DNA of 55,738 bases from an uncultured Dehalococcoidia bacterium (GTDB lineage: Bacteria > Chloroflexota > Dehalococcoidia > SZUA-161): the NCBI GenBank assembly GCA_964524995.1, contig CAZGDV010000004.1:1-55738 (forward strand). Direction: 5' to 3'. The notes beneath the pieces were generated by a model. It searched no databases, had not been told where the DNA came from, and saw only the letters and a program-made list of their open reading frames with translations. Positions within the stretch are counted from its first letter, which is position 1. Every line of letters starts with the position of its first letter. This document shows, in pieces, positions 4,995 to 55,140 of the stretch. The position numbers and the translations under genes are program-made.

Positions 4995-5050
4995 ATCAAC
5001 CGAGTGTTCCAATCATGCGCACCTTGCAGGCGGTTCTCCAAGGAGGCTCC

Positions 5051-8000: not shown

Positions 8001-8137
8001 GGCTTGCAGTGGTGAAGAAGATTCTCGGCAGGCACGGCGGCAGCATCCGAGTCGAGTCCAAACCAAGCATTGGAAGCAAGTTCTTCGTATCGCTACCAGC
8101 TTCCCCCTCAGATACAACGGCGAAGGAGAGAGGATGA
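5051..8137 (+). CDS. Hybrid sensor kinase HK1: N-terminal receiver, 5 PAS, HisKA, HATPase
   Basis: GTG 5051 after AGGAGG; REC (LIVDDE..TDIKMPG..TKPF), five PAS/PAC units, H-box SHDLRSPL, NLLDNALKY, DNGVGI, GLGL; no TM helix seen. Confidence 0.93.
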   Translation: MAKPKADLLIVDDEESIREVLARRLKDEGYACWTASDGAEALATASKHDFDLVLTDIKMPGLSGMDVLTQLAAISPDTGVVMVSAMADAQTAIEAMKLGAYDYVTKPFDLDALRIRIDNALEKRRLILENREYRLREAQQALETQEKYFKSLIENSQDAIVVLNSDGSVRYESPYVGRVLGRKTSERAGESGFKYIHPDDSPGVAAAFERILKNPNETARLEFRLQDSSGSWHHFEAIGRNLLEDPAVRGVVANLRDTTERKLMETALRESQQEYEVLLSNIPDAVFRYMDGRMTWTNEMIEQILGYTPDELSSTGVGFFLPEDVDLRGIETNVNKIIKKEGHFHGEIRAKRKDGSVADIEYSASHIPGKTPIEIVGVARDITEQKKARQALLESERRLQTILDSVHSGVVLIDAETHVVVDANPTALELFEASRDEIVGQRCYESICPAQEGKCPITDLGETIRDSEQVLARRDGTTLQILRTVTTIDLSGRQYLIHTFVDISERKEAEKSLNRQERYFRALTENSSDVITVINADGTVRYESPSYQRVFGVKPEERVNEGLLERIHPDDMDAMTKAFARFIRGRKKTLRVETRARHADGSWRWIEAVGTNLLKDPAVEGIVVNMRDITERKEAEEALRQSEEKLRLMFEAVADGIAVVDLNGVITDCNTRTVELHGYGSKNDLIGKSAFDLIISPEQLEAMRDMDRLLNRGVIDRLEHTYTRVDGTQFEAESSASVMRDANGNPTGFIGVTRDISERKRTELDKERLNRELTEKNAELEQIVYVTSHDLRSPLVNIQGFSKELGFLFGELASVLEDTGMDREDRDDALANLNRETSDALHFIETSTSKMDTLLSGLLRLSRLGRAALNFETLDMNAMLSDVEKSLQYRINEAQAQVEIDSLPPCTGDAVQVNQVFSNLLDNALKYLDPARKGVIKVTGWTEGEQSVYAVEDNGVGIAEEHQTKVFEVFQRINPDMSEGEGLGLAVVKKILGRHGGSIRVESKPSIGSKFFVSLPASPSDTTAKERG

Positions 8138-8589
8138 AGAAAGAGATGACCATACTCATAGCAGAGGACGACATCGGCCATGCCTCCCTCATCATGAAGA
8201 ACCTGAGGCGGGCGGGCATAACCAACGAGATATTGCACTTCCAGGATGGCCAACAGATACTCGACTACCTGTTCGGCAAGGGTGGTCAGACGCCCTTCGC
8301 CAATGGTGTGCCGTACCTTCTCCTGCTCGACATACGTATGCCGAAGATGGACGGAGTGGAGGTACTGAGCCAAATCAAGGCCCACCCACAACTCAAGACA
8401 ATGCCGGTGATCATGCTGACCACGACGGATGACCCGAGGGAGGTAGAGCGATGCTACAAGCTGGGATGCAGCAGCTACGTTGCCAAGCCCATCGACTATG
8501 ACAAGTTCACCGAAGCCATTCGGCAGCTCGGTTTGTTCCTAATGGTCGTGGAGGTGCCAACGATCGATGAAAGCTCCAGAGTCAATTGA
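8134..8589 (+). CDS. Single-domain response regulator (Rcp1/CheY-like)
   Basis: ATGA overlap with HK1; [39 protein letters not shown] motifs. Confidence 0.92.
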
Positions 8590-10126
8590 CGAACTCGCAA
8601 CCAACGGTATCGTCCTGGTTGTTGAAGATGACGAAGGCATTCGCAATCTGGTCACCAAGTACCTAGGCAGGGCCGGCTTCACTGTTGAGTCGGTAGGCAC
8701 AGGTGCAGAGGCCATTGAGAGAGCCCTGGAGCTCGACGAAGTGCTGCTGCTCCTGGATTATCAACTGCCTGACATGACAGGGAAGCAGGTTGTGGAGAAG
8801 ATCAGCGCGGAGGACAACAAGCCGTTCGTCATGATGACAGGGCACGGCGACGAGAAGACAGCAGTGGAGATGATGAAGCTCGGTGCACGGGATTACGTCG
8901 TCAAAGATGCCGATTTCATCGCCACACTGCCTCAACTTGTTGGGCGCGTTCTCAGGCAGGTCAGGACAGAACAAAGGCTCACGGAAGCTGAGGAACAGCT
9001 GCACGAATCACAGCGCTCTCTGGCCACACTGATGGGCAACCTTCCCGGCATGGCATACCGCTGCAAGGACGACGAGAACAGAACCATGGTCTTCGTCAGT
9101 GAGGGCTGCCGGCAGCTCACCGGTTGCGAGCCCGCGGAACTGACGGAGGGTGGCAGTGTCAAATACGCTCAACTTATTCATCGGGAAGACAGACAGGCAG
9201 TCTTCGATGCAATTCGATCATCGTTGGCCGAGAGAAAGCCCTTTCAGGTCGTCTATCGCATCTGGTGCGCCGATAGGAGTCTCAAGTGGGTGTGGGAAAA
9301 AGGGACTGGCCTGTACTCCCTTGATGAAGACTTCGTCGCAATCGAGGGCTTCGTCACTGACATCACAGAGCGCAAGCTGGCCGAAGAGGCACTGCAGGAG
9401 GTAGATCGCCTGAAATCGGAATTCGTCGCTAACGTATCTCATGAACTCAAGACACCTCTGCAGGCTATCACCGGGAGCACCCGACTCATTCTGGCCAAGA
9501 AGGTGCCGGATCACGAGACGCAACGCGAGTTCCTGACGATCATCGACAAACAGAGCAAGCGCCTCACTGAGCTGATCAACGACCTATTGGATGCCTCACG
9601 AATGGAATCCGGCCGTTTCAGCATCGATCGCGTGCCGACCGACGTCGGCGAGATTGTACATGCCGCGATAGAGGAAACTGGCAGTATCGCCGGCGAGAAG
9701 GGTATCTCCATACATGCGGATGTCTCACTCTCACCGGCCCGGGCCCTCTCTGACGCGACGCGCATCAAGCAGGTCATAATCAACCTCCTCGGTAATGCAA
9801 TCAAGTTCAGCGATGAAGGCTCCACCATCACCGTGAGGGTGGAGCAGACCAACTCCGAGGTGCTCACCCAGGTATCAGACCACGGCTGCGGCATACCCGA
9901 CGACGCCATACCTAAGCTGTTTGACAGGTTTCACCAAATTGATGGCTCAGCAACACGCAATAGCGGCGGTAGCGGCCTCGGGCTCTACATCTCCAAGCAG
10001 ATCGTGGACGCGCATGGAGGACAGATGTGGGTAGAGAGCAAGTTGGGAGAGGGAAGCACTTTCAGCTTCACCCTGCCAGCAGCTCACCACGGTTCCGAAC
10101 TGACGCCGCAGGGCCAAGAGAGGTGA
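8567..10126 (+). CDS. Hybrid sensor kinase HK2: receiver, PAS, HisKA, HATPase
   Basis: [15 protein letters not shown] receiver, one [32 protein letters not shown]. Confidence 0.92.
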
Positions 10127-10595: not shown

Positions 10596-12314
10596 ATGGA
10601 TGCCAAGGAAGACTCATCCGCCGCATCGGAGTTGAAGACCAGGCTGGGCAGGGTGCTCGTCGACACCGGACGCATCACCCAGGAGCAGCTCGAAGAGGCT
10701 CTCGGGCTGCAAACGATCGAGAACCGTAAGCTGGGCGAGGTTCTCATCGAGCGCGGTCTGGCAACAGCTGAAGACATAGCCACAGCACTAAGCCTCCAAC
10801 TGAACCTGCCCCTGATAGACCTGAAACGCCACGTTGTCCAGCCTAACGCGTTGAAGCTGGTTTCCGAGCGCGTCGCCAGGAAGCATGTGCTCATACCACT
10901 GGACGTCGCAGGTGATGCACTCGTCGTGGTGATGGCAGACCCGACGGACATAGTCGCGATCCAGGACGTATCGGTCCAGGCCGAGATGAGGGTGCAGCCA
11001 GCGGTCGGCATCCCCCAGGACATACAAGAGGCGATAGACCTCAATTACAAGGCAATCAGCGAGATCGAGCAGGAGGTTGGGCAATTCGCCTTCACTACCA
11101 CCACTGCAAACAAACCCACACCAGAGTTGGAAGACGCGATCTCGCACACGCCGGTGGTCCGAACCGTAGACCTGTTGATCGCTCAGGCCTTGAAGGAGCG
11201 CGCCTCGGACATCCACATAGAGCCTCAGGAAGACAGAACCCGAGTCCGCTATAGAGTGGATGGAGTGCTGCATGACGCAATGTCGTTGCCCAAGAGCGCC
11301 CTTGAGTCTCTTATCTCAAGGGTGAAGATTCTAGCCGACATGAATATCGCTGAGCGAAGAAGACCGCAGGATGGGCAGTTCTCCATAAAGGGTGAAGGAT
11401 GGGAAGCCGACATCCGCGCCGCCACGTATGACACAGGATACGGGGAGACAGTGGTAATGCGCCTATTGGACAAGTCGCTGCCGCTATTCGCTCTGAACGA
11501 CCTTGGCATGCGGCCCGAGGTCATGACCAGGTATCTCGACATGCTCAAGTGCCCGTATGGAATGATACTCGTGGCAGGCCCGACCGGATCGGGCAAGACT
11601 ACCACCCTCTACTCTTCGATAAACCAGCTCGACAGGCATCAAAAGAACATTATAACGATTGAGGACCCCATCGAGTATCAGTTCAGCAATCTCAAACAGA
11701 CGCAAGTCAACGTAAGAGCAGACATCACGTTTGCGACAGGCATGAGGGCACTGATGAGGCTGGATCCCGACGTCATACTTGTCGGCGAGATACGCGACGG
11801 CGATACCGCGAAGATGGCCATACAGGCAGCGCTCACCGGCCATTTGGTGCTCTCCTCGATACACGCAAACGACGTTGTCGGGGTGCTGTTCAGGCTCATG
11901 GACCTGGGGGTAGAACCCTATCTGATAGCCTCAGCAGTGATCGGGGTTGTTGCTCAGAGAATGATCCGTCTGATCTGCTCGCACTGCCGCGAACCGTACG
12001 AGCCACCGCCCGGGGAGTTGGACGTCTACAGAGGAATCCTAGGCGAAGGGGCAGAACCGCCTACCTTCTATCACGGGTATGGGTGCAATCTGTGCGCCCA
12101 GACGGGCTACCTGAAGAGGACTGGCGTTTACGAGGTCATGCCCATAAGCGAAGAGTCAAGGCAACTGTTCCTCAAAGGTGCAGCGCCCAGCGCTATCAGA
12201 TCTCAGGGGATCGAAGAAGGCATGGTGCCCTTGAAGGTCGATGGAATGCTCAAGGTCAAGAACGGACTCACGACCACAGAGGAAGTGCTCCGCAACGTTT
12301 TCTCCATTGGCTAG
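10596..12314 (+). CDS. pilB: Type IV pilus assembly ATPase (PilB/GspE family) with N-terminal MshEN motif pair
   Basis: Walker A GPTGSGKTTT, TIEDPIE, Walker B DPDVILVGEIRD, LSSIHAN, Zn motif CSHC...CNLC; RLG/KLG repeats at the N-terminus. Confidence 0.95.
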   Translation: MDAKEDSSAASELKTRLGRVLVDTGRITQEQLEEALGLQTIENRKLGEVLIERGLATAEDIATALSLQLNLPLIDLKRHVVQPNALKLVSERVARKHVLIPLDVAGDALVVVMADPTDIVAIQDVSVQAEMRVQPAVGIPQDIQEAIDLNYKAISEIEQEVGQFAFTTTTANKPTPELEDAISHTPVVRTVDLLIAQALKERASDIHIEPQEDRTRVRYRVDGVLHDAMSLPKSALESLISRVKILADMNIAERRRPQDGQFSIKGEGWEADIRAATYDTGYGETVVMRLLDKSLPLFALNDLGMRPEVMTRYLDMLKCPYGMILVAGPTGSGKTTTLYSSINQLDRHQKNIITIEDPIEYQFSNLKQTQVNVRADITFATGMRALMRLDPDVILVGEIRDGDTAKMAIQAALTGHLVLSSIHANDVVGVLFRLMDLGVEPYLIASAVIGVVAQRMIRLICSHCREPYEPPPGELDVYRGILGEGAEPPTFYHGYGCNLCAQTGYLKRTGVYEVMPISEESRQLFLKGAAPSAIRSQGIEEGMVPLKVDGMLKVKNGLTTTEEVLRNVFSIG

Positions 12315-18049: not shown

Positions 18050-18080
18050 TTGACATGTCGCCGACCCGGTGATATACATT
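18050..18080 (+). promoter_or_regulatory. sigma70-type promoter candidate for the giant kinase
   Basis: TTGACA (18050-18055), then TATACA at 17 nt or TACATT at 19 nt spacing. Confidence 0.55.
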
Positions 18081-18201
18081 GTTCACCCTCCCCGCGATTC
18101 CTTCACATGTGCCACTCTGCGGAACCCCCTCCACTCCGCATTCCCAAGCCCAACCGCTCTATGGGTGCCCCACGCACGCTGCACTATCGAGGAGGCCGAC
18201 G

Positions 18202-21200
18202 ATGGAGCATCAAGGCAGAATACCTGACACGAACGCCGATCCCCCTCCAAACGATGACTTCGGGCATTGGTCCGGGCTGACTAAACAGTTCTTCCTCGCT
18301 TCACCCGACGGCATGATACTCTGCGATAGCGAACTCGCAGTTGTCGCGGCCAACCCGGCCGCGACAAGCCTTCTTGGGCTGCCCGACGATCTGGCGGCCT
18401 CTGCCCGGAAGCCCACCCTCACAGAACTGGTGCCGAGCCTGGGCCGGACACCGCACCGCGAGAGGCTGCGTAGAATCATGGAGACAGGCAAGCCAGCCAA
18501 CTTCCACGTTATGCTCACCACCCCGGACAATGGTCGTGACAGGCATCTGTACATCGTGGGCTTCAAGGTGAACTGCGGCATTGGACTGGTCGTCAGGGAA
18601 CCCTCAAATGTGTTCGCAGGGAGACGCCCTGCCGAAACGGCCGATGACGCGGCGGAATGGTCGGCCCTGCTCGAGAACTCGGCGAGTCCTATGATAGTCA
18701 TCGGCGAGCAGGGAGACCTAGTCGCATGCAACGATGCGATGCTGAGCTTCCTGGAATCCTCACGTAAGGACGTGCTCGGTGCAAACATCCAGCAATTCGC
18801 CACGCCGGACAGCGGCAGGCGCGTGCTTGGTCAACTCACCTCGCTCCTGCACAGTGGCGGCACCCTCGAAATCGAGCTCCAGGTGAACCACAGAACCAAG
18901 ATGCTGGAGCTAACCTTGACGGCTGGCACCTGGCGTGATGAGCCGGTGCTCGTGGGAGCGGGCACGGATGCTACGAACCGCCACCGCGCCGAGGAATCGG
19001 CACGGGCCGCCGAGAGCAGGTACAAGGCCCTCTTCGACAACCCGCTCTTGATGGTCTTCCTCAACGACGAGAACGGCACGATACTGGAAGCGAATCCGGC
19101 CGCTATGGAACGGATGGGCTACACGGAGAGCGATCTCGGGCATGTCAACTTCGTCGACCTGCTGCACCCGGACGACAGGGAGAGGGTATTCGCCAGAATG
19201 GCGAGCATCATCGCTGGCGGTTCAATGGAGTACCGGGTTGAGCTCCGGCTCTTGACCAGGACGGGCGAACTCATGTGGATAGAGATGTACGGGTTCGTCA
19301 TCGAACGCGGCGAGGGCACCTACCTTGGTCTAGGGGTAGCTTCCGAGATAACGGCGCGCAAGCGGGCGGAGGCAGCTCTGGCCGAGAGCGAGGAGCAGTA
19401 CAGGTTGATCAGTGAGACATCCATGGACGGCATATACCAGGTCGACTCATCCGGGCACATGGTGTACTGCAACACAGCTCTCACCGCGATGCTAGACTAC
19501 GAACGCGATGAGATGATCGGCCGCCACTTCTCCATGTTCGTACCCGAGAGCGAAGTCCCCAGGGTGCAAGAGCAGGTCAGTATTGTCCTCCGCGGAGAGA
19601 GTCTCAATGCAGAGGTCACAGTGAGGGACAAACACGGCAACCTCATGCCTGTCTTCTTCAGCGCCGTCCCCAACCGGAGCAACGGCGAGATCACCGGTCT
19701 CACCGGAATACTCAAGGACGTGACCTCGCTGAAGCGGACCGAGGCCGCCCTGGCCGAGAGCGAGCGCCGCTTCAGACTGTTCATGGACCATCTGCCCGGT
19801 GTCGCCTTCATCAACGACGCCAATGGCTTCACCGTCTACGGCAACAGGCGTATCCACGAGGCCTACGGTCTCGAGCCGGGCGAGTACGAAGGACACAGGC
19901 TGGAGGACGTTAACCCGGACTACGCCCACACAATACGACAGCAGGATTCCCGGGTTCTGACCGAGGGAATCACCCTCCAGTTCGAGGAAACTATACCCGA
20001 CCAGTCCGGCCCGCGCGAGTGGCTGACCACCAAGTTCCCCATCCCCAGCGAGGGTGAGGCAAGTCTGGTCGGCGGTGTGGCCATTGACATCACGGACCTG
20101 AGGCGGCTGGAGAAGAAGCTGTTCCGGCAGCAGAGACGCTTCCAATCGCTGATAGAGCACTCGTCAGATGTCGTCTGCCTCGTTGGCGCGAACGGCGAGC
20201 TGCGATACATCAGCCCAGCTGTCGAAGGCGTCTTGGGCTACCGCCTCGACGACCTCGCGGGCAAGCGGCCCCTGGACTTCGTACACCCGGAGGATTCGGC
20301 CCGCGCTGCCGACTCGCTGGCCCTGGTCAGCAATACGCACTCAACAACGCTGCCGGTTGATATCAGGGTTAGGCACGTCGACGGCTCGTGGCGCACCCTG
20401 GAGGTCAGTGGCACCAACCATATAGATGACCCAGCAATCGGAGGCATAGTCGTCAGCTTCCGTGACGTGACCGAGCGAAGGCAGGCTGAGGAGGCCCTGC
20501 GCGAGTCGGAGATCAAGTACGCTACGCTTGTCCAACAAGCCAAGGACGCTGTGATAATCGAGCAGGACGAGTTGCTCGTATTCGTAAGCCAGGGCGCAGA
20601 ATCAATAACAGGCTATGCGGTTAGCGAGATTCAGGGCAAGCATTACCTTGACCTGGTCGTAACCGAGCACGAGGAGATCGGGAAGGCGACGTACCGGTTT
20701 CTGCTCGCGGGCAAGATACCCGCGGCCACCTACCCGTCGCGCATACTGCGCAAGGACGGAACCACCAGGGATATCGAGCTCTCTGTCAGCACGATCGAGT
20801 ACCGGGGAAGGCCGGCGCTCATGGCCGTGGTCAGAGACGTTACAGAACGCAATCGTATGGAGCGATCACTTCGAGGCCTAATGGAGTTCGAGAAGCTGGT
20901 TTCCGAACTCTCGGCCGCTTTCGTCAACGTGCCCAGCGAGGAGGTCGACGCCCATATCGAGGAAGGCCTCCGAAGAATCGTCGAGCACTTGGGACTCGAT
21001 CGAAGCACGCTGCTCGAGTTCTCCGATGATAAGAGCGAGCTCCGTGTCGCATACTCCTACGCCAGGCCAGGGGCCGAACGGTCCCCGGCAGTATCCGTCA
21101 GCAATTACCTCCGCTGGTACACAGACAGGCTCAGGCAGGGCGACGTGGTGCGATGGCACCGCATCGAAGACCTCCCGGAAGAGGCGGAACTGGAGCGACT

Positions 21201-24200
21201 CTACGCCGAGGTCAGCGGCATCAAGTCGAACTTGTCCGTTCGAGTGGACATCGCGGGAGCCCCCTCCTTCGTCATCGCCATGGGCTCGTTCACGACCTCG
21301 CAACCATGGCCCGAGGAGTGGGTGCCACGGCTCAGGATCCTCGGCGAGGTCTTTGCCAACGCCATCATCCGCAGGCGCACCGACGAAGCCCTCCGGCGCA
21401 GCGAGGAGAAGGCCCGAGGCGTCCTGGAGAGCGCGACGGAGATGATATACAGGCTCGATCTCCTCACGGGCAACTATGACTACGTCAGCCCCTCGGTCAG
21501 GTACGTACTGGGGATGGAGCCCGAAGACTACCTAGCAATGACCATCTGGGAAACGCGATTGCTCACCCACCCCGACGACCTTCCGCGCCTGGATGCCAAC
21601 GTCCTCAAGGAGCTTCTGGCCGACCCCAGGCACTCCGAGCTGCCTTCCGATACAGAGTACCGTATACTCAATCGCCAACGAGGTTACAGGTGGGTATGCG
21701 ACAGCAGGCGCATCGTCTGGAGCTCCGACGGCACGAGGCAACTCGCCGTCGTCGGCAGCCTCAGGGACATACACGACCGCAAGGAAGCGGAAGACAGGCT
21801 GAGAAGGAGCGAGGAGCTTTTCAGATCCCTGATCGAGAACGCCACGGACTTCATAGTCATCATTGACGCGGACGGAAAGGTGCGCTACGAGAGCCCCTCG
21901 GTCGCGAGACTGATCGGCTACGAGCCGGACGAGCGCGTCGGCAAGAGTGCCTTCGAGCATGTCCACCCCAACGATGTTCAGCGGGTCATAGACACCTTCG
22001 CGGCCTTGAGAGAGCAGCCAGGCGCGACGATGAGCATGGAGCTGCGCTTCGGGCGCAAGGACGGCTCATTCGCCTACGCCGAGGGGACAGGCCGTAACCT
22101 CATCGATCACCCTGCGGTGGAGGCCATTGTCGTCAACCTCCGCGACATCACCGAGCGCAAGCTGGCAGAGGCTCAACTCAAGCAGAGCGAGGAGAAGTAC
22201 CGCTCCTTCGTGCAGAATTTCGGGGGGGTAGCTTACCGGGGCTACACCGACTGGGGAATCGACTTCTTCCACGGCAAGGTCGAGGAACTGACCGGATACA
22301 CCGAAGACGAGTTCAAGAGTGGTGCCGTCAGATGGGACCAGATCATACATCCTGAGGACCTCCCCCACGTTGCATCTGATGTGTCCCAGACAATCGCGGA
22401 TAAGGAACCGTCTCATGCGAGGGAATACCGCATCATCCGCAAGAACGGTGAGATAGCCTGGGTCAGGGAGATCTTGCACATAATTGTCGACGATTCCGGC
22501 AACGCCAGCGGCGCGCAGGGCGTCCTGCTGGACATCACCGAGCGCAGGCTGGCTGAAGCTCAACTGAGGGAGAGTGAAGAAAAGCTCCGGCTCATTTTCG
22601 AGTCGGTGCACGAAGGCATTGCAGTGACAGACCTCGACGGCGTCGTAACCGAGTGCAACACCAGGATAGCCCAATTCCACGGGTCATCCTCCAAAGATGC
22701 GATACTCGGGCACTCTGCGCTTGAATTGATTGCACCGCGCGACCGTGATCGGGCGAAGGCCAATATGCAATCGAGACTCGCGGGGCACCCCGCTGAGCGA
22801 AACGAGTATGCAGTCCTCAGAGCCGACGGCACTGAATTCGCCTCCGAGCTGATCTCCACCGTCCTCAGGAATGACCTCGGTGATGCCATCGGCCTCCTGG
22901 CCACCATCCGCGACATCAGCGAGCGCAAGAAGGCTGAAGACGCTCTGCGCGCGAACGAAGATAGATATCGCAACCTGTTCAACAATGCACAGGTGGGTTT
23001 GTTCCGCTCCAGGATCAGCGACGGCAAGTTCATCGAGTGCAACGACCTGTTCGCCGAGATGGTGGGGTATCCCAGTCGTGAGGAATGCCTCGCTGACTTC
23101 GTTGCGTCCGAGCACTACGCAGATCCGGCCGTCCGGCAACGGATGCTGGCGGAGATAGCCGATCGTGGTCAAGTCAGGAGTTTCGAGGCCCTAGTAACAC
23201 GCGCCGACGGCTCCCCGTTCTGGGTCAGCTACTCCGCCCACATCTACCCCGAAAAGGGATATATCGAAGGCGCGGGAATCGACATAACCGAACGCAAGCT
23301 CGTGGAGGATGCGCTGCGCCGGAGCGAGCACAAGTACCGCACTCTTGTCGAGAGCATGCATGATGGTCTCTGGGTCATCGACCAGAAAGCCCGGACGACC
23401 TTTGTCAATCCTCGCATGGAAGAGCTTCTCGGCTACGACCCCGGCGAGATGATAGGGAGACACCTGTTCGAGTTCATGGACGAGCATGACAAGGCGATCG
23501 CCAAGATCAACCTCGCGCGCAGGCGGCAGGGGATTGCGGAGCAGCATGACTTCAAGTTCATTCGCAAGGACGGAACAGCAATCTGGGCAACCCTCGCGAC
23601 CAATCCCCTGTTCGACGAAAGCGGAAGCTACATCGGCGCGATGGCCTGCATCGCTGACATCACCGAGCGCAAGCGGGCCGAAGAGGCGATCCGACATAGT
23701 GAGGCGAGATTCAGGGAGCTGGCCGACCTGCTTCCTCAGGCCGTGTTCGAGACGGACAATGAGGGCAATCTGACATTCTTGAACCAGAAGGGCATGGAGC
23801 TATCGGGCTATTCGGTCGAGGATATCGACACGGGCCTGAACTGTCTCCAACTCGTCGTCCCCGAGGAGCGCGAGCTCGCACTGTTGAACCTGCAGCTGAT
23901 GATCCAGGGAGCGGAATCAGTTGGCACCGAGTACACAGCCCTCCGGAAAGACGGCTCGACATTCCCCGTCGTACTCTACTCGAGCACCATCTCGAGGGAA
24001 GGTCAACCCGTAGGGCTCCGGGCCGTTGCGATGGACATCACTGAGCGCAAGATGGCCGAGGAGGCCCTGAGGCGGAGCGAGCAGCGGTTCAAGGCGCTCA
24101 CCGAGAACGCCCTGGATGTGATCGTCGTAGTGGGTGCCGATGGCAAGGTGGCCTACGAGAGCCCTTCAGTGGAGCGAGTGATGGGCTACACGCCGGAGGA

Positions 24201-27200
24201 TGTCGTTGGACGCAAGGGTTTCGAATACCTGCACCCTGAGGACGTGCCCGCTGCCGCCGAGATGTTCGCAGACCTGCTGACGCATCCCGGCGAGACCCTG
24301 ATCACTGAGCTGCGCGTGCATCACAGGGACGGCTCTCTCCGCTTCGTGGAGGCTGTGGCGAGGAACCTCCTCGATGACCCAGCTGTTTCCGGCATCGTTG
24401 TCAACTTCCGCGACATCACCGAGCGCAAGCAGGCGGAGCAGCTCATTCTCTCCAGAATGCAGATGCAGCAGCTCATTGCCGAGACAACATCACACTTCGC
24501 AGGCCCAACATGTGCCGATATCGACCGTACCATAACAGATGCTTTAGGCCGGATTGGCACGTACATCGGAGTCCATCGTATCTATATCAACATCTTCGCG
24601 AAAGACCAAACCTCCATTGCGATTACCCACGAGTGGTGCGACTCCGACATCGAGCTATTTGGATTCCAGGCATTCTCGCTCGCACCATTCCCTTGGGCAT
24701 TGTCCAAGCTGAACAAAGGGGAAAGCATTCGCGCCGATACACTCGATGAACTGCCGCAAGAGGCGTCCAACGAGAGAAGTCTGTGGCAGAGCACCGGCGT
24801 GAAGTCCATAATAGGCATTCCTCTCATCGTGCAGGGTTCCTTGATAGGTTTCATGGGCTGTAGCGACGAGCGAAACGGGCGTACTTGGCAAGATGACGAC
24901 ATGCATATCCTGACAATCATCGGCCAGACAATGGCGAATGCCATCCACCGCATTCAGGCCGAGGAGGCACAGCGAGCGAGCGAGGAAAAGCTGAGATCAT
25001 TCATGGACTCGGCTACCGACAGCTTCTTCCTCTGGGATTCGGAGTTCAACATGATGGACATCAATGAGAGCGCGGCACAGCGGTGGGGCGTGCCCAGGGA
25101 AGAGTTGATCGGGAAGAACATGCTGGAGTTCTCGCCCGAACTGAAGTCCACGGACAGATACAAGAAGTATCTTGAGGTTCTCTCAACCGGGAGCAGCTTT
25201 GAGTCCGAGTTGCTCATCAATCATCCCCGATTGGGGTCCAGATGGCACTCTTTTAGAGCTTTCCGGGTGGGCACTGGTCTGGGCATTATCTCGACCGACG
25301 TCACCCGCCGCAAGGAGAATGAGGAGGAGTTGGACCGCTACCGACAGCACCTCGAGGAGCTGGTCCAGGAGAGGACAATCGATCTGCAGGAGTCCAACGA
25401 AGAGCTACTCGAACAGGCCTCAGAGCGCATCAAGGCCCAGAAAGAGGTGCAGCGCGAGAAAGACAAGGCACAGAAGTACCTCGACATCGCCGCCGTCGTG
25501 CTCCTGGTGATAGACACAGACGGCACCGTGAGCCTGATCAACAGGCGCGGTTGTGCCATCCTCGGATACAACCAGGATGAGATTCTGGGCAGGAACTGGT
25601 TCGACAGCTTCGTCCCACCGTCCGTGGCAGGTGACTCCAGGGCGATGGTCAAGAGGTTCCTCGAAGGCGAGGGGGCCTACGGCAGATACGAAGGCTGGGT
25701 GCAGACTCGAAGCGGCGAGCGGAGGAACATCCTCTGGCATGGCGTCGTGCTGCGCGATGACGATGGCACGGCGCTGGGCGTCCTGGCATCCGGTGAGGAC
25801 GTCACAGAGCATCGGAGGGCTGAGAGCCTGAACACGGCCCAACGCGATCTGGCTGTGAAACTCAGCGCAACCGACAGACTCGATGAGGGTCTCCACCTCT
25901 GCCTGGAAACAGCACTGGAGGTATCCGAGATGGACTCGGGCGGCATCTACCTCTTGAACACCGCCGATGGTTCGCTCGACCTGGCTGTACACACGGGTCT
26001 GTCTCCAGCCTTCGTAGACGCCGTCCGCCACTACTCGCCCGACTCTCCAAGTGCTCGGCTAGTCGCCTCTGGGAAGCCCGCCTACACAAGCTATCCTGAA
26101 GTCGGGGGAATCGTAGACGATGTCAGGCGAGAAGAGGGGCTGCATGCTATAGGCATAATCCCTGTGACCCACCTCGGCCAGGTCATTGGTTGCCTGAACA
26201 TCGCTTCGCACCAGCTTGAAGACGTGCCTGACCACGCCCGCGTCGCGATCGAGACCGTAGCCGCCCAGATTGGCAGCGCCGTGACCCGCCTGCAGGCCGA
26301 GGAGGCGCTCAGGGACAGCGAGCAGGCGTTCCATGCCATCACAGAAGCGATTCCAGTACCCGTGGGCATATCGGCCAGGCCCGGCGGTACCATACTCTGG
26401 GAGAACACCCACCTCAGCCCCCTGTTCGGCCTGCCGCCAGGCAGCATGGCTGGCCGCACGACGACTGATTTCTTCACCAGCTTGTCTGATAGGGAGTTCG
26501 TACGCACGGCGCTGGACCGCTGCGGAAGGCTAGACATGTACGAGTTCGAAGCAAGGAGGGCAGACGGCACTCCGGTATGGGTAATGGCCTCGGTACAACC
26601 CATGGTGTTCCAGGGAGAAGAGGCGAGCATCACGGGGTTCTACGACATAACGAAGCGGAAACATCTGGAGGACGAACTCCGAGACCTCTACGATCAAGAG
26701 CGGGAGCTGAGTCAACGGCTGGAGGAGGAAATCAACAGACGCATAGAGTTTACCAGGGTACTGGCACACGAGCTCAAGACGCCTCTCACACCAGTGATGA
26801 GTTCGAGTCAGCTCCTCGAAGCCATGCTCGAAGACGAAGCTGCATCGAAGTTGGCCCAGAACATAAGCCGTGGCGCTAGCAATCTCAACAGAAGGATCGA
26901 CGAGTTGCTCGATCTTGCACGAGGAGAGATCGGCACTCTGCGGCTCAAAGAGGAGATCATCGACCTGCGGCAGCTCATCAGGGAAGTGATACATGATATG
27001 ATTCCTCTTGCCGCCGAACGTGACCAGACGCTGACCACGCGAATATCGAGAAAGCTGCCGATCGTAAGGGGGGACTCGGACAGGATACGGCAGATTCTGT
27101 TGAACCTGCTCAACAACTCCATCAAGTTCAACCAGCCGGGGGGTCAGATCTCTATACTCGCCTCATCCGACGATTCAGGCGTCACAATAGAGGTAAGGGA

Positions 27201-27477
27201 CACTGGAACCGGCATCCCGAAAGAGGACCTGCCAAGGCTGTTCGAGCCGTATTCGCGCCTGGAAGGCGACAGAGAGCACCTCAGCGGTCTGGGCCTCGGT
27301 CTGGCGCTGTGCAAGACCCTAGTTGAGCTTCACGGCGGCGAGGTATGGGCGAGAAGCCGTCCCGGCAGGGGCACCACGATCGGCTTCTCACTACCCGTCG
27401 GCACGCGTGAGGGTGTGGAGAGGAAGAAACGAAGCAAGTCAGGAGGTAGTCGTGAGGGCTCTAATAGTCGAGGATGA
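18202..27477 (+). CDS. Giant cytoplasmic sensor histidine kinase HK3 (~3090 aa; 18 PAS, 3 GAF, HisKA, HATPase)
   Basis: ATG 18202 after GAGGAGG; repeated PAS/PAC units ending D(I/V)TERK; three GAF-like segments; AHELKTPL, NLLNNSIKF, DTGTGI, GLGLGL; no TM helix seen. Confidence 0.93.
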   Translation: MEHQGRIPDTNADPPPNDDFGHWSGLTKQFFLASPDGMILCDSELAVVAANPAATSLLGLPDDLAASARKPTLTELVPSLGRTPHRERLRRIMETGKPANFHVMLTTPDNGRDRHLYIVGFKVNCGIGLVVREPSNVFAGRRPAETADDAAEWSALLENSASPMIVIGEQGDLVACNDAMLSFLESSRKDVLGANIQQFATPDSGRRVLGQLTSLLHSGGTLEIELQVNHRTKMLELTLTAGTWRDEPVLVGAGTDATNRHRAEESARAAESRYKALFDNPLLMVFLNDENGTILEANPAAMERMGYTESDLGHVNFVDLLHPDDRERVFARMASIIAGGSMEYRVELRLLTRTGELMWIEMYGFVIERGEGTYLGLGVASEITARKRAEAALAESEEQYRLISETSMDGIYQVDSSGHMVYCNTALTAMLDYERDEMIGRHFSMFVPESEVPRVQEQVSIVLRGESLNAEVTVRDKHGNLMPVFFSAVPNRSNGEITGLTGILKDVTSLKRTEAALAESERRFRLFMDHLPGVAFINDANGFTVYGNRRIHEAYGLEPGEYEGHRLEDVNPDYAHTIRQQDSRVLTEGITLQFEETIPDQSGPREWLTTKFPIPSEGEASLVGGVAIDITDLRRLEKKLFRQQRRFQSLIEHSSDVVCLVGANGELRYISPAVEGVLGYRLDDLAGKRPLDFVHPEDSARAADSLALVSNTHSTTLPVDIRVRHVDGSWRTLEVSGTNHIDDPAIGGIVVSFRDVTERRQAEEALRESEIKYATLVQQAKDAVIIEQDELLVFVSQGAESITGYAVSEIQGKHYLDLVVTEHEEIGKATYRFLLAGKIPAATYPSRILRKDGTTRDIELSVSTIEYRGRPALMAVVRDVTERNRMERSLRGLMEFEKLVSELSAAFVNVPSEEVDAHIEEGLRRIVEHLGLDRSTLLEFSDDKSELRVAYSYARPGAERSPAVSVSNYLRWYTDRLRQGDVVRWHRIEDLPEEAELERLYAEVSGIKSNLSVRVDIAGAPSFVIAMGSFTTSQPWPEEWVPRLRILGEVFANAIIRRRTDEALRRSEEKARGVLESATEMIYRLDLLTGNYDYVSPSVRYVLGMEPEDYLAMTIWETRLLTHPDDLPRLDANVLKELLADPRHSELPSDTEYRILNRQRGYRWVCDSRRIVWSSDGTRQLAVVGSLRDIHDRKEAEDRLRRSEELFRSLIENATDFIVIIDADGKVRYESPSVARLIGYEPDERVGKSAFEHVHPNDVQRVIDTFAALREQPGATMSMELRFGRKDGSFAYAEGTGRNLIDHPAVEAIVVNLRDITERKLAEAQLKQSEEKYRSFVQNFGGVAYRGYTDWGIDFFHGKVEELTGYTEDEFKSGAVRWDQIIHPEDLPHVASDVSQTIADKEPSHAREYRIIRKNGEIAWVREILHIIVDDSGNASGAQGVLLDITERRLAEAQLRESEEKLRLIFESVHEGIAVTDLDGVVTECNTRIAQFHGSSSKDAILGHSALELIAPRDRDRAKANMQSRLAGHPAERNEYAVLRADGTEFASELISTVLRNDLGDAIGLLATIRDISERKKAEDALRANEDRYRNLFNNAQVGLFRSRISDGKFIECNDLFAEMVGYPSREECLADFVASEHYADPAVRQRMLAEIADRGQVRSFEALVTRADGSPFWVSYSAHIYPEKGYIEGAGIDITERKLVEDALRRSEHKYRTLVESMHDGLWVIDQKARTTFVNPRMEELLGYDPGEMIGRHLFEFMDEHDKAIAKINLARRRQGIAEQHDFKFIRKDGTAIWATLATNPLFDESGSYIGAMACIADITERKRAEEAIRHSEARFRELADLLPQAVFETDNEGNLTFLNQKGMELSGYSVEDIDTGLNCLQLVVPEERELALLNLQLMIQGAESVGTEYTALRKDGSTFPVVLYSSTISREGQPVGLRAVAMDITERKMAEEALRRSEQRFKALTENALDVIVVVGADGKVAYESPSVERVMGYTPEDVVGRKGFEYLHPEDVPAAAEMFADLLTHPGETLITELRVHHRDGSLRFVEAVARNLLDDPAVSGIVVNFRDITERKQAEQLILSRMQMQQLIAETTSHFAGPTCADIDRTITDALGRIGTYIGVHRIYINIFAKDQTSIAITHEWCDSDIELFGFQAFSLAPFPWALSKLNKGESIRADTLDELPQEASNERSLWQSTGVKSIIGIPLIVQGSLIGFMGCSDERNGRTWQDDDMHILTIIGQTMANAIHRIQAEEAQRASEEKLRSFMDSATDSFFLWDSEFNMMDINESAAQRWGVPREELIGKNMLEFSPELKSTDRYKKYLEVLSTGSSFESELLINHPRLGSRWHSFRAFRVGTGLGIISTDVTRRKENEEELDRYRQHLEELVQERTIDLQESNEELLEQASERIKAQKEVQREKDKAQKYLDIAAVVLLVIDTDGTVSLINRRGCAILGYNQDEILGRNWFDSFVPPSVAGDSRAMVKRFLEGEGAYGRYEGWVQTRSGERRNILWHGVVLRDDDGTALGVLASGEDVTEHRRAESLNTAQRDLAVKLSATDRLDEGLHLCLETALEVSEMDSGGIYLLNTADGSLDLAVHTGLSPAFVDAVRHYSPDSPSARLVASGKPAYTSYPEVGGIVDDVRREEGLHAIGIIPVTHLGQVIGCLNIASHQLEDVPDHARVAIETVAAQIGSAVTRLQAEEALRDSEQAFHAITEAIPVPVGISARPGGTILWENTHLSPLFGLPPGSMAGRTTTDFFTSLSDREFVRTALDRCGRLDMYEFEARRADGTPVWVMASVQPMVFQGEEASITGFYDITKRKHLEDELRDLYDQERELSQRLEEEINRRIEFTRVLAHELKTPLTPVMSSSQLLEAMLEDEAASKLAQNISRGASNLNRRIDELLDLARGEIGTLRLKEEIIDLRQLIREVIHDMIPLAAERDQTLTTRISRKLPIVRGDSDRIRQILLNLLNNSIKFNQPGGQISILASSDDSGVTIEVRDTGTGIPKEDLPRLFEPYSRLEGDREHLSGLGLGLALCKTLVELHGGEVWARSRPGRGTTIGFSLPVGTREGVERKKRSKSGGSREGSNSRG

Positions 27478-28147
27478 CAAAGAGGTTGCCGACGGCATCT
27501 CGCTTCTGCTGCATTTCTACTGGCCCGAGGCTGAGCTCATGGTTACATCTCTGGGTAGGGAGGGAATCGAACTCACCAGAAGCGCGTATCCCGATATCAT
27601 CGTGCTGGACCTGGGCTTGCCTGACATAAGCGGCTTCGAAGCCCTGCGGGAGATACGACAGTTCTCCTCGGTTCCGATTATCATTCTCACCGTGAAGTCA
27701 GAGGAGTCCGACATTGTGAAAGGGCTCGAGTGGGGCGCGGACGACTACATCGTGAAGCCATACGGACAACTCGAGTTGCTCGCCCGGTTGAGAGCCAGGC
27801 TGCGCGACAAGAACCACCCGGCAGAGGCCAGCACACTTACTTTCGGCCCTTTGCGTCTCAACGCCGGGCATCGTGAGCTCCACTGTGGACAGAAAGAGGT
27901 CGATCTGACAGCCATCGAAGCTCACATCATGCATCATCTCATCAGAAGTGGGGGGCATGTGGCAACATACTCCAGCCTTGCCGAGGAAGTGTGGGGTGAA
28001 GACTACCCGGGTTCCCTCGACAGTCTGAGGGTCTACATTCGGCGTTTGCGGGAGAAAATCGAGGATGATCCCAGCCACCCCCAGATGATCCTGAACAAGC
28101 CAGGTGTCGGCTATTACCTATCACGGCACGCCAAGGCGCAACCGTGA
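27452..28147 (+). CDS. OmpR/PhoB-family response regulator RR1
   Basis: GTG after AGGAGG, overlapping the HK3 end by 26 nt; LIVEDD, LDLGLPD, DYIVKP; winged helix SLRVYIRRLREKIEDDP...GVGY. Confidence 0.95.
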   Translation: MRALIVEDDKEVADGISLLLHFYWPEAELMVTSLGREGIELTRSAYPDIIVLDLGLPDISGFEALREIRQFSSVPIIILTVKSEESDIVKGLEWGADDYIVKPYGQLELLARLRARLRDKNHPAEASTLTFGPLRLNAGHRELHCGQKEVDLTAIEAHIMHHLIRSGGHVATYSSLAEEVWGEDYPGSLDSLRVYIRRLREKIEDDPSHPQMILNKPGVGYYLSRHAKAQP

Positions 28148-28219
28148 CAGAGAGATCTATCACCCCGTTAACTCGCAGAGCAGCAGAGCATCGGAAGCTC
28201 GTGTACCCTCGCCTGCGTC

Positions 28220-28303
28220 TTAACGGCTTGTAAGCCCTTTCTTAGCCCTTTCTTATTCTCAGCAACCTCGCTTAATGCCTGTTTAACCGCCTGGGCTTAA
28301 ACT
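28220..28303 (+). promoter_or_regulatory. 4+2 array of 11-bp direct repeats plus -10 box (copy 1)
   Basis: ttaacggcttg/taagccctttc/ttagccctttc/ttattctcagc, 8-nt gap, ttaatgcctgt/ttaaccgcctg, TAAACT at 28298 (offset 78). Confidence 0.8.
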
Positions 28304-28587: not shown

Positions 28588-29171
28588 CGATGACCGCAAA
28601 AGGCATGAGCGAGAGCGACCGCGGTGTCCTCTCACGGCTGGTGCAGGCCGGAGACGTCGCGTACAGACTCAAGAGGAACACGCTGGCGCAGGTAGGTATT
28701 TCCGCCCTGGAGAGCGAGGTGCTGCTCATGCTCAATGGCGCGGAAGGCCCCATCGACACTCCCAGTCTGTCGCGAAGGATGCTTCTGGAGCCAAGGGCAC
28801 TTCGCAGCCTGCTGCGTCGCATGGAGAGCAAGGGGCTTGTATCGCTATGCAAGTCCGGACCCGAGAAGAACGCAACCCAGGCCGTCGAGGCGACAGAGGA
28901 AGGCCATCTGGCCTATTCGAAGTCTTTGGAACTCAACAACATGTACGGCGTACTGTCATGCCTGTCCTCAGAAGAGAAGGAACAGCTTGAGGTGCTCCTG
29001 AGAAAACTCCTTCGAACTTCGCTATCCACTCTCGGGATCGGCAGGCTGTTTCATCATGCCGAACTGGTTGGGGAAGTCCCGCCCCCCACAAGGCGGCGCG
29101 AGTCCCGAGCCCGTGCAGCCAGATCCGGCAGAGGCCAGTCGCCAGAGAGCACTTTGTGCAGACAGCAATAG
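28584..29171 (+). CDS. MarR-family transcriptional regulator (Dehalococcoidia-like subtype)
   Basis: GIS..E..VL..L....GP.....LSR.MLLEP.....LLRRME.KGLV...ATEEG..AY...LSCLS.EEKEQL; start uncertain (28569, 28584 or 28590). Confidence 0.85.
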   Translation: MTMTAKGMSESDRGVLSRLVQAGDVAYRLKRNTLAQVGISALESEVLLMLNGAEGPIDTPSLSRRMLLEPRALRSLLRRMESKGLVSLCKSGPEKNATQAVEATEEGHLAYSKSLELNNMYGVLSCLSSEEKEQLEVLLRKLLRTSLSTLGIGRLFHHAELVGEVPPPTRRRESRARAARSGRGQSPESTLCRQQ

Positions 29172-29224: not shown

Positions 29225-29992
29225 ATGGCCAAGGAAGCGTTGGACATACTGATCATCGAGAACGATCCAGATGTCGTAGAGGCAGTGGCCCTGGTGCTCC
29301 ACATGCGTTGGCCCGACGCGAGGATTGCGGCCACCGATTCCGGTGCAGCTGGCATCGAACTGGCGGGAAGCGATGAAGTGGATGTGATCATACTCGATCT
29401 GGGTCTTCCCGATATTGATGGCTTCGACGTAATCAGGGAGATCAGGGCGTTCTCGGCCACCCCCATAATAGTACTCAGCGTGAGGTCCGGAGAGTCGGAC
29501 ATCGCGCGGGCTCTCGACGAGGGAGCGGATGACTATATAGCGAAGCCCTACTCCCCGCTTGAGCTGATAGCGCGGCTTAGAGCACGGGTCAGCGATAGGG
29601 ACGAGCACGCTGCTTGGGGGCCGCTCTCCTACGGCCAACTCACACTTGATCCCCTCAAGCGTGAGTTGGCCGTAGGAGACAAGTCGGTGAACCTCACAGT
29701 TGTCGAACTGCAGATCATGCGCCAGCTCATCAGAAGGGCTGGTGGCATTGTTCCCTTCCTTGCACTCGCCGAGAGCGTTTGGGGTGAAGAGCACCCTGGG
29801 GCGCTCGACAGTCTCAGAGTATATATCCGGCGCCTGCGGAAGAAAGTCGAGGACGACCCCAGCTACCCCAAGCTCCTGCTTACGAAGACGGGCGTGGGCT
29901 ACTACCTGGCCAAGCCAGCCCTGAACCACGTCAAGTGCAGCGCCGACGCGCTGCACGTAGTGCTCAGGAAATCACACACCGTTACCCCGTGA
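29225..29992 (+). CDS. OmpR/PhoB-family response regulator RR2 (orphan)
   Basis: ILIIEND, LDLGLPD, DYIAKP; winged helix SLRVYIRRLRKKVEDDP...GVGY; no adjacent kinase. Confidence 0.94.
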   Translation: MAKEALDILIIENDPDVVEAVALVLHMRWPDARIAATDSGAAGIELAGSDEVDVIILDLGLPDIDGFDVIREIRAFSATPIIVLSVRSGESDIARALDEGADDYIAKPYSPLELIARLRARVSDRDEHAAWGPLSYGQLTLDPLKRELAVGDKSVNLTVVELQIMRQLIRRAGGIVPFLALAESVWGEEHPGALDSLRVYIRRLRKKVEDDPSYPKLLLTKTGVGYYLAKPALNHVKCSADALHVVLRKSHTVTP

Positions 29993-30036
29993 ACGTACTC
30001 CAAAGGCACCGCTCCAGACTGTCCCAGCGCTCGTGG

Positions 30037-30120
30037 TTACCGAGTTCTCACCGGTTTCTTAGTATCGTTTAATGCCGAACCGCGTCTGTTAATCGGCCTC
30101 TTATCGGCCCACTCTAGACT
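30037..30120 (+). promoter_or_regulatory. 4+2 array of 11-bp direct repeats plus -10 box (copy 2)
   Basis: ttaccgagttc/tcaccggtttc/ttagtatcgtt/taatgccgaac, 8-nt gap, ttaatcggcct/cttatcggccc, TAGACT at 30115 (offset 78). Confidence 0.8.
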
Positions 30121-54808: not shown

Positions 54809-54915
54809 GTGACAGTTCCTTCCCCGTGAGGCCACCCTGCGCCGAGTGTAGTGCGCAGGTGTCCAACCCAAGTCGAAGTCCAAGCATTCGCGAGTCCATC
54901 ACACATTCAGACAGA

Positions 54916-54999
54916 AGTCTAGACTCGTACGCTGAAAAGCGGGTTAACACACTGCATACGGAATAAGATGACCATGAAAAACGGATTAGAATGAGTTAA
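54916..54999 (-). promoter_or_regulatory. 4+2 array of 11-bp direct repeats plus -10 box (copy 3)
   Basis: Minus strand from 54999: ttaactcattc/taatccgtttt/tcatggtcatc/ttattccgtat, 8-nt gap, ttaacccgctt/ttcagcgtacg, TAGACT at 54921-54916 (offset 78). Confidence 0.8.
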
Positions 55000-55140
55000 T
55001 CCGCTACGTTGGCGTGAGATTGCCGATCCAATGTCCGCACATCCCACACAGTTGGCGGACGCGACTCCATCGCCGGTTGGGACCTTTGCTCTCAGTAGCG
55101 GTCAGTCGAAGAACAGACAACTGGAGTCGCCCCACGGATA

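Follow-up and report, generated by a model that had tools for sequence, protein, structure and literature searches.

Proteins with PAS domains carry two of them on average, and the maximum in reference proteomes is 19, found in one cyanobacterial kinase (Aulosira, UniProt A0A1Z4MZL8) (Xing, Gumerov and Zhulin, Sci Adv 2023; PMC10468136). In PpsR, rigid PAS dimers are connected via N-cap and linker helices (PMC3949515), and in CckA/DivL the PAS domains set the balance between kinase and phosphatase activity (bioRxiv 10.1101/323444). Here we analysed a 55,738-nucleotide (nt) stretch of DNA, hereafter the window, from an uncultured Dehalococcoidia bacterium of the phylum Chloroflexota (GenBank assembly GCA_964524995.1, contig CAZGDV010000004.1, positions 1 to 55,738, forward strand), which contains a giant sensor histidine kinase gene (18202..27477, plus strand). 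An earlier note made from the letters of the window had proposed a soluble kinase of ~3090 amino acids (aa) with 18 PAS and three GAF domains on one transmitter, which feeds the response regulators RR1 and RR2 and, through them, promoters with repeat arrays. We place the probability that this gene encodes a genuine, intact, soluble multi-sensor HisKA-class kinase partnered with RR1 at about 80%. Giant multi-sensor kinases form a well-populated class, of which this protein is a large example; it does not represent a new kind of system.

The kinase and its transmitter

The plus strand carries a single open frame from 18079 to 27477, with a probable start at ATG 18202. A GAGGAGG sequence lies 6 nt 5' of this ATG, and an independent gene call uses the same start. 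The product has 3,091 aa, a mass of 346 kDa and an isoelectric point of 5.1; by our own arithmetic, the chance probability of an open frame of ~3,100 codons at 60% G+C is ~1e-44. Translation of the frame, Pfam and a hidden Markov model (HMM) built from the kinase's own PAS domains gave the module order PAS1-7, GAF1, PAS8-15, GAF2, PAS16, a helical linker, PAS17, GAF3, PAS18, HisKA and HATPase_c, exactly as the earlier note had read it in a single frame. The whole-protein Pfam search returned PAS-clan families, GAF families, HisKA and HATPase_c only.

The transmitter is complete at the sequence level. The HisKA (DHp) domain (aa 2847-2909; 26740..26928, plus strand) scored 42.3 bits in Pfam against a cut-off of 26.9, and its H box, HELKTP, carries the phospho-acceptor His2856 (nt 26767-26769). 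The HATPase_c domain (aa 2957-3066; 27070..27399, plus strand; Pfam 112 bits) contains the N box LLNLLNNSIK, the G1 box DTGTGI, the F box LFEPY and the G2 box GLGLGL, so the boxes that had been described as intact on one transmitter are all present. The sequence features that mark a HisKA-class kinase, i.e., an H-box DHp domain, a GHKL domain with its boxes and a cognate regulator (RR1), are thus found together in the sequence. The closest solved transmitter is that of Thermotoga HK853 (4jas, 2c2a), which aligned to aa 2835-3065 with E = 3e-32. No Response_reg match was found by Pfam in the 3,091-aa product. This speaks against a hybrid kinase or a single-chain kinase-regulator fusion, as there is no receiver in the chain and RR1 is encoded in another frame.

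The absence of transmembrane helices also held up. Kyte-Doolittle analysis found no credible membrane helix, and the two highest 19-residue averages (1.75 and 1.69) lie inside the cores of GAF2 and PAS17. Since the hydropathy peaks fall within domain cores and the N-terminus is hydrophilic, the kinase is a soluble, cytoplasmic protein.

The regular linkers between modules raise the question of an assembly artefact, in which the frame would have been stitched from several kinase genes at similar linkers; a chimera at repeated linkers was among the findings that the earlier note had named as refuting its reading. Linker DNA does form repeat families (40-75 nt at 60-81% identity), and the kinase genes of several relatives are located at contig ends. 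However, the longest exact repeat within the gene is 24 nt, which is also the most that any linkers share, and no exact word of at least 28 nt is shared between the gene and the rest of the 3.0-Mb assembly. Since assemblers usually work with longer words than this, and reads are far longer still, such repeats offer no route to a mis-join. The identical 3,091-aa protein is called on 10 contigs in a public collection, two of them 0.2-1 Mb long, and a 15,276-nt locus in a Joint Genome Institute (JGI) metagenome record agrees with the window at every base. The open frame runs unbroken through 21 modules and ends in a single transmitter; Pfam found no second HisKA or HATPase within the open frame as a remnant of an internal kinase, and a fusion of several kinase genes was ruled out for this reason. 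An assembly chimera is very unlikely, and we give it next to no weight.

Sensor modules

The HMM built from the kinase's own PAS domains converged on exactly 18 PAS domains, the number that had been claimed. Each of the 18, when scanned as an isolated piece, exceeded at least one gathering score of the Pfam PAS clan. PAS1-PAS7 (aa 26-885; 18277..20856, plus strand) span aa 26-134, 147-262, 268-388, 394-512, 518-635, 641-761 and 767-885. PAS8-PAS15 (aa 1065-2077; 21394..24432, plus strand) span aa 1065-1195, 1201-1321, 1327-1450, 1456-1577, 1583-1700, 1706-1825, 1831-1951 and 1957-2077. The remaining three stand apart on the same strand: PAS16 (aa 2258-2372; 24973..25317), PAS17 (aa 2417-2539; 25450..25818) and PAS18 (aa 2704-2821; 26311..26664), the last of which adjoins the transmitter.

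The PAS domains are connected in a regular manner. A terminal motif of the D(I/V)T-x-R/K type followed by AE..L..SE..(Y/F)R is present in 16 of the 18. PAS1 is the exception, being attached via a linker that contains Pro and Gly and is probably flexible. In the AlphaFold model of PAS14-PAS15, the only pair modelled (predicted local distance difference test, pLDDT, 94), two canonical PAS folds are joined by one unbroken 22-residue helix, and a second helix heads towards GAF2. This model suggests that the PAS-PAS connectors are alpha-helical. Between PAS16 and PAS17 lies a 44-residue helical linker free of Pro and Gly (aa 2373-2416; 25318..25449, plus strand), coiled-coil-like when read from its sequence (NEEELDRYRQHLEELVQERTIDLQ...), and its LE..V.ERT.EL motif also occurs in unrelated giant kinases.

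All three GAF domains that had been proposed were borne out, with the sole correction that GAF1 is invisible to Pfam itself. GAF2 (aa 2078-2257; 24433..24972, plus strand) scored 43.4 bits against the Pfam GAF cut-off of 22.4, and in GAF3 (aa 2540-2703; 25819..26310, plus strand) the best stretch of the Pfam GAF_2 match is aa 2560-2694. GAF1 (aa 886-1064; 20857..21393, plus strand) is divergent and cysteine-free, and gave no Pfam match when scanned alone. By BLASTP it aligned with GAF2 over 172 residues (E = 7e-20); its 56%-identical paralogue matches Pfam GAF, as do four of the five members of its subfamily. Its AlphaFold model is confident (pLDDT 90; predicted TM score, pTM, 0.86), and the top Foldseek matches of the model are solved GAF domains (E ~1e-11, TM 0.75-0.78). 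The GAF2 alignment, the Pfam matches of the paralogue and subfamily, the confident model and the Foldseek result together settle that GAF1 belongs to the GAF fold despite the silence of Pfam. Bilin GAFs are among the structural matches of the GAF1 model. For GAF1, a phytochrome- or cyanobacteriochrome-type photosensor was rejected, since aa 886-1064 contain no cysteine and the Pfam scan found no PHY domain. In GAF2-type domains (GAF2 and its paralogues on contigs C19 and C86), an HEWC motif is conserved and its cysteine is invariant, which may mark a thiol or cofactor site; GAF1 and its paralogue on contig C49 are without a cysteine at this position.

Cofactors were also sought for the PAS domains. 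Neither the LOV motif (NCRF/GxNCRFLQ) nor the c-haem motif CxxCH occurs in the kinase sequence, and the similarity of the PAS domains to FixL and LOV structures is weak (E = 1e-5 to 1e-11). Cofactor assignment was therefore rejected, as the LOV and c-type haem motifs are absent and the structure matches are too weak for a transfer of ligands. The diversity of the PAS subtypes favours several inputs.

Partner regulator

RR1 is the probable partner of the kinase. This OmpR-family regulator of 231 aa (27452..28147, plus strand) consists of a receiver (REC) and a winged helix, as found by Pfam (REC and Trans_reg_C), and was also called independently. Its start, GTG 27452, is preceded at 5 nt by AGGAGG, and the gene overlaps the end of the kinase gene by 26 nt, in line with the overlap with an OmpR gene reported earlier. 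From the sequence, this arrangement has the form of classic translational coupling. Homologues of the two proteins also occur fused. In the metagenomic protein P0023, a transmitter 56% identical to that of the kinase is joined to a REC-winged-helix-turn-helix (wHTH) regulator 54% identical to RR1 (E = 2e-84), and the bacterium's own genome encodes four single-chain kinase-regulator fusions, on contigs C33 (19528-22125), C116, C105 and C118. Across relatives of the family, the kinase and regulator matches are adjacent or lie within one open frame. The pairing of kinase and RR1 is thus supported by both the translational coupling and the fused homologues, which represent a Rosetta-stone relation.

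The fused proteins have the layout PAS-HisKA-HATPase-REC-wHTH, with a linker of 13-17 aa ending in KLW-K between kinase and regulator. In the clade defined by this transmitter and RR1 (27323-27477 of the window), a soluble PAS kinase and an OmpR-type regulator appear usually to form one polypeptide, and the giant kinase would be the unfused member. One may ask whether the kinase and RR1 are truly one chain of ~3,310 aa (PAS/GAF-kinase-REC-wHTH), split in the data by a 1-nt sequencing error or in the cell by a programmed frameshift. The four paralogues and P0023 are in-frame fusions with linkers of 13-17 residues, and the frame of RR1 continues without a stop for 43 codons before its GTG. Yet RR1 is read in another frame than the kinase, the KLW-K junction typical of the fusions is missing, and there is no homopolymer where the two genes meet. 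The strong AGGAGG 5 nt before the GTG has no counterpart at that place in the fused paralogues, and the same 3,091-aa product is called on 10 contigs of the public collection. Given a well-placed Shine-Dalgarno sequence and the lack of the junction motif, we read the split between kinase and RR1 as real and consider a single chain improbable.

Occurrence and origin of the sensor chain

The number of sensors in series had been called extreme, which is correct for this genome only. In the 3.0-Mb genome, 120 PAS domains are distributed over 35 open frames, and the giant kinase has 18 of them compared with eight in the next kinase. Beyond this genome, the 19 PAS domains already published for Aulosira exceed this number, and so do metagenomic relatives. 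Of the 8,000 candidates scored in a length-restricted search, 3,210 were significant relatives with lengths of 1,700-5,400 aa; among the best 120, 31 reach 3,000 aa or more, and some come from Dehalococcoidia and Anaerolineae. The same HMM counted 19-26 PAS domains in 11 of the 16 relatives that were fetched, and these eleven are 3,400-4,000 aa long; their higher summed Pfam scores agree with this count. The closest of these giant relatives is only 33% identical, over part of its length. The closest full-length relative, P0003, lies in an unrelated genomic context with no regulator adjoining.

The sensor chain appears to be a mosaic. Pairwise identity between the PAS domains of the kinase is mostly 20-35%, with a maximum of 55% (PAS9-PAS15) followed by 45% (PAS6-PAS15), and this identity matrix rules out that the array arose through tandem duplication in the recent past. 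For ten of the 18, a more similar domain (40-64% identity) is found in another kinase of this genome. Examples of such partners are in kinases on contigs C86 (PAS9, 64%), C9 (PAS14, 53%) and C42 (PAS4, 51%), in the REC-5xPAS kinase at 5015-8137 of the window (PAS11, 45%) and in a kinase on contig C116 (PAS17, 43%). The low internal identity and the closer partners in other kinases indicate a mosaic of distinct PAS subtypes, probably built by accretion and shuffling of modules that are also in use in other kinases of the genome rather than through recent duplication within the gene. Overall, the nearest paralogue is encoded on contig C42 (10676-14509, strand-specific), a kinase of 1,278 aa whose transmitter is 51% identical. 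Its PAS1, PAS2 and PAS6 match PAS1/16, PAS4 and PAS18 of the giant with their order conserved, and the giant looks like a C42-type kinase into which many modules were inserted.

A mosaic of this kind, together with the lack of an orthologue among the matches listed for the same-genus genome and the other 29 relatives, might be taken for a lineage-specific, nearly neutral product of accretion that is heading to decay and has little regulatory role. The state of the gene points the other way: its 9.3 kb are free of stops, every catalytic box and all 18 PAS cores are intact, and it is tightly coupled to an intact regulator. We regard decay as highly improbable and prefer an intact kinase that works with RR1.

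Proposed output and mechanism

Three repeat arrays lie within the window at promoter positions, before a pair of genes encoding a MarR-like protein and RR2 and before two divergent operons. Array 1, with six 11-bp-phased TTA boxes, lies downstream of RR1 (28219..28303, plus strand). It is followed on the same strand by a small MarR-like gene between RR1 and RR2 (28590..29171), identified by an independent gene call and a weak MarR_2 match below the cut-off, and by RR2 (29225..29992), an orphan OmpR-family paralogue with 55% identity to RR1 (Pfam and pairwise comparison). Array 2 (30036..30120, plus strand) stands ahead of plus-strand genes for surface proteins and a flippase. Array 3 (54911..55000, minus strand) stands ahead of a minus-strand sugar-biosynthesis operon whose first gene starts at 54883. 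All three were found by sequence scan and have box offsets of 0/11/22/33/52/63; in array 1, five of the six boxes are TTA, and ~6e-6 such windows are expected by chance genome-wide. The six-box layout with a shared TCTAGACTT-like -10 box occurs only at these three places in the genome. Other 11-bp-phased TTA/TTAC arrays in the genome reach the three-box threshold of the scan, e.g., four CTTAAC boxes on contig C70. They are located at ~4565 of C70 (both strands), ~14670 of C26, 16132 of C17, 25165 of C18, 9670 of C107 and 3814 of C116, and are probably the binding arrays of other OmpR-family regulators.

In the mechanism that we propose, the kinase would form a parallel dimer shaped as a long rod and held together by the DHp helices and the PAS N-cap helices. 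A change in one or several modules, caused by a ligand, a redox state or the binding of a partner, would reach PAS18 and the DHp domain by way of the helical spine. The state of the modules would then tip the kinase either towards autophosphorylation of His2856 and phosphotransfer to the Asp of RR1 or towards dephosphorylation of phosphorylated RR1 (RR1-P). The H box has the HExxT form, which in HisKA kinases goes with phosphatase activity. RR1-P would subsequently bind the six-box 11-bp arrays at 28219, 30036 and 55000 (minus strand), and array binding would activate the MarR-like/RR2 pair together with both divergent operons for surface glycosylation. From the position of the arrays, it is a reasonable inference that RR1-P binds them and hence that the kinase governs surface glycosylation. 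We hold this chain of output steps, from RR1-P to the arrays and operons, only tentatively, at somewhat less than even odds. Of the proposal that the kinase feeds RR1, RR2 and the array promoters, the part concerning RR1 stood, given the coupling and the fused homologues, while control of RR2 and of the promoters is tentative, the promoters being tied to the kinase by gene order.

Several observations weigh against the kinase acting in this way. The scan found no repeat array upstream of the kinase itself, gene order is the sole tie between the kinase and the arrays, and RR2 or a 64-65%-identical regulator on contig C18 could use the same array sites. Searches of 30 relatives from the same family and order, with the transmitter and RR1 as queries, brought up no one-to-one orthologue, so that conservation cannot serve as evidence of function. 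The best transmitter match among these relatives is 55% identical, the longest open frame among the matches listed has 1,557 aa, and the same-genus genome contains paralogue-level matches only and no orthologue of the giant kinase. Several of the best transmitter matches (G013:C195, G016:C48 and G007:C169) come from contigs of 3.5-13 kb or from the ends of contigs. Long kinase genes in related draft genomes may therefore be truncated and under-counted, and with several matches at contig ends the absence of an orthologue is not provable. Finally, motif reading and comparison with solved structures found no recognisable cofactor signature in any PAS or GAF domain.

The last point bears on an alternative in which most modules are structural, as a dimerisation rod, a spacer or a docking platform, and control of the kinase falls to just one or two modules close to the transmitter. 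Modules without a cofactor signature would suit such a role, PAS domains are known to mediate protein interaction and oligomerisation (PMC3949515; 10.1101/323444), and the regular helical connectors would make a stiff rod. However, a pure spacer would more likely be composed of similar repeats, whereas the PAS subtypes of this kinase differ and are common to other kinases, as expected if each keeps its own sensing role. All 18 are also well formed and above the Pfam cut-offs. We thus consider a mostly structural chain unlikely, but it deserves more weight than the other alternatives. The suggested role as a filament-like scaffold found nothing in our analysis to support it.

The multi-sensor reading can be carried further. 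The kinase might be a master integrator with one copy each of the module types that occur, alone or in small sets, in at least eight other kinases of the genome, merging all of their cues into one decision on surface-glycan remodelling via RR1 and the three array promoters. Its dimer would be a helical-spined rod, perhaps 70-110 nm long by a rough estimate. This is a speculative and rather doubtful extension. If it were true, the kinase would be a natural case of many-input logic within one chain and would offer a tractable way to study the reach of signals through serial PAS domains.

The multi-sensor kinase is a verified, assembly-safe case near the upper end of module number, from a phylum (Chloroflexota, class Dehalococcoidia) whose signalling is almost unstudied. 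Its practical value is that the 18 PAS domains all differ, the connectors are regular, and a partner regulator and candidate binding arrays are close by, which suits truncation and phosphotransfer work on how, and whether, the distal modules of giant kinases control the transmitter. A further lead from this gene is the clade of soluble kinase-OmpR fusions, which may merit study in its own right.

Upstream region

Upstream of the kinase, at a distance of 336 nt, is a type IV pilus-like locus that has a phosphorelay of its own. The 336-nt gap between pilMN and the kinase contains a promoter-like element (18050..18078, plus strand), TTGACA followed after 17 nt by TGaTATACA, which was read by eye and is weak as evidence. 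Apart from the final base of its -10 hexamer, an A in place of T, it comes close to the consensus of an extended -10 promoter. The promoter scan reported nothing upstream of the kinase; the TTGACA-17-TATACA element breaks the rule of the scan. The pilus locus houses two receiver-headed PAS kinases (5015-8137 and 8567-10126) and a PilB-type ATPase (10596-12314) with an MshEN domain (Pfam E = 2e-16). MshEN is a known module for binding of cyclic di-GMP (c-di-GMP).

Comparison with known systems

In overall architecture, the kinase most resembles other giant multi-PAS kinases (Aulosira A0A1Z4MZL8 and P0044, P0011, P0016 and P0072). These proteins are likewise soluble or mostly soluble, with long PAS chains, interspersed GAF domains, helical connectors of the DIT type and a single C-terminal transmitter. 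However, their identity to the kinase is 22-33% and no module order is shared, which makes them analogues and not orthologues. Several of them are hybrids with receivers or use HisKA_3, whereas this kinase has a plain HisKA transmitter and a separate OmpR-type partner. We found no experimental characterisation of these giant multi-PAS kinases.

The output end has closer kin. The fused PAS-HisKA-HATPase-REC-wHTH proteins (on C33, C116, C105 and C118, and P0023) have transmitters 54-60% identical and regulators 49-55% identical to those of the kinase and RR1, and by these identities they would be the true family of its output end. They are single chains of 800-2,077 aa with 2-10 PAS domains, whereas the sensor chain of the giant kinase is several-fold longer and its regulator is a separate, coupled gene. 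Among solved systems, HK853-RR468 of Thermotoga maritima (2c2a, 3dge, 4jas) shares the HisKA DHp and CA domains and the same type of H box, but HK853 has a small membrane-anchored sensor and its partner is a single-domain regulator.

In CckA/DivL of Caulobacter (10.1101/323444) and PpsR of Rhodobacter (PMC3949515), serial PAS domains with N-cap and linker helices set the output or the oligomeric state. These proteins have two to four PAS domains compared with 18 here; CckA and DivL are membrane-anchored and PpsR is a transcription factor. The hybrid two-component systems (HTCS) of Bacteroides (PMC11253607) combine a kinase and a DNA-binding regulator in one polypeptide, as the fused paralogues do. 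In contrast to the giant kinase, which is itself unfused, HTCS are transmembrane proteins with periplasmic sugar sensors and an AraC-type output. By analogy, the fused clade of soluble kinase-OmpR proteins, to which the output end of the giant kinase belongs, can be viewed as the cytoplasmic counterpart of Bacteroides HTCS.

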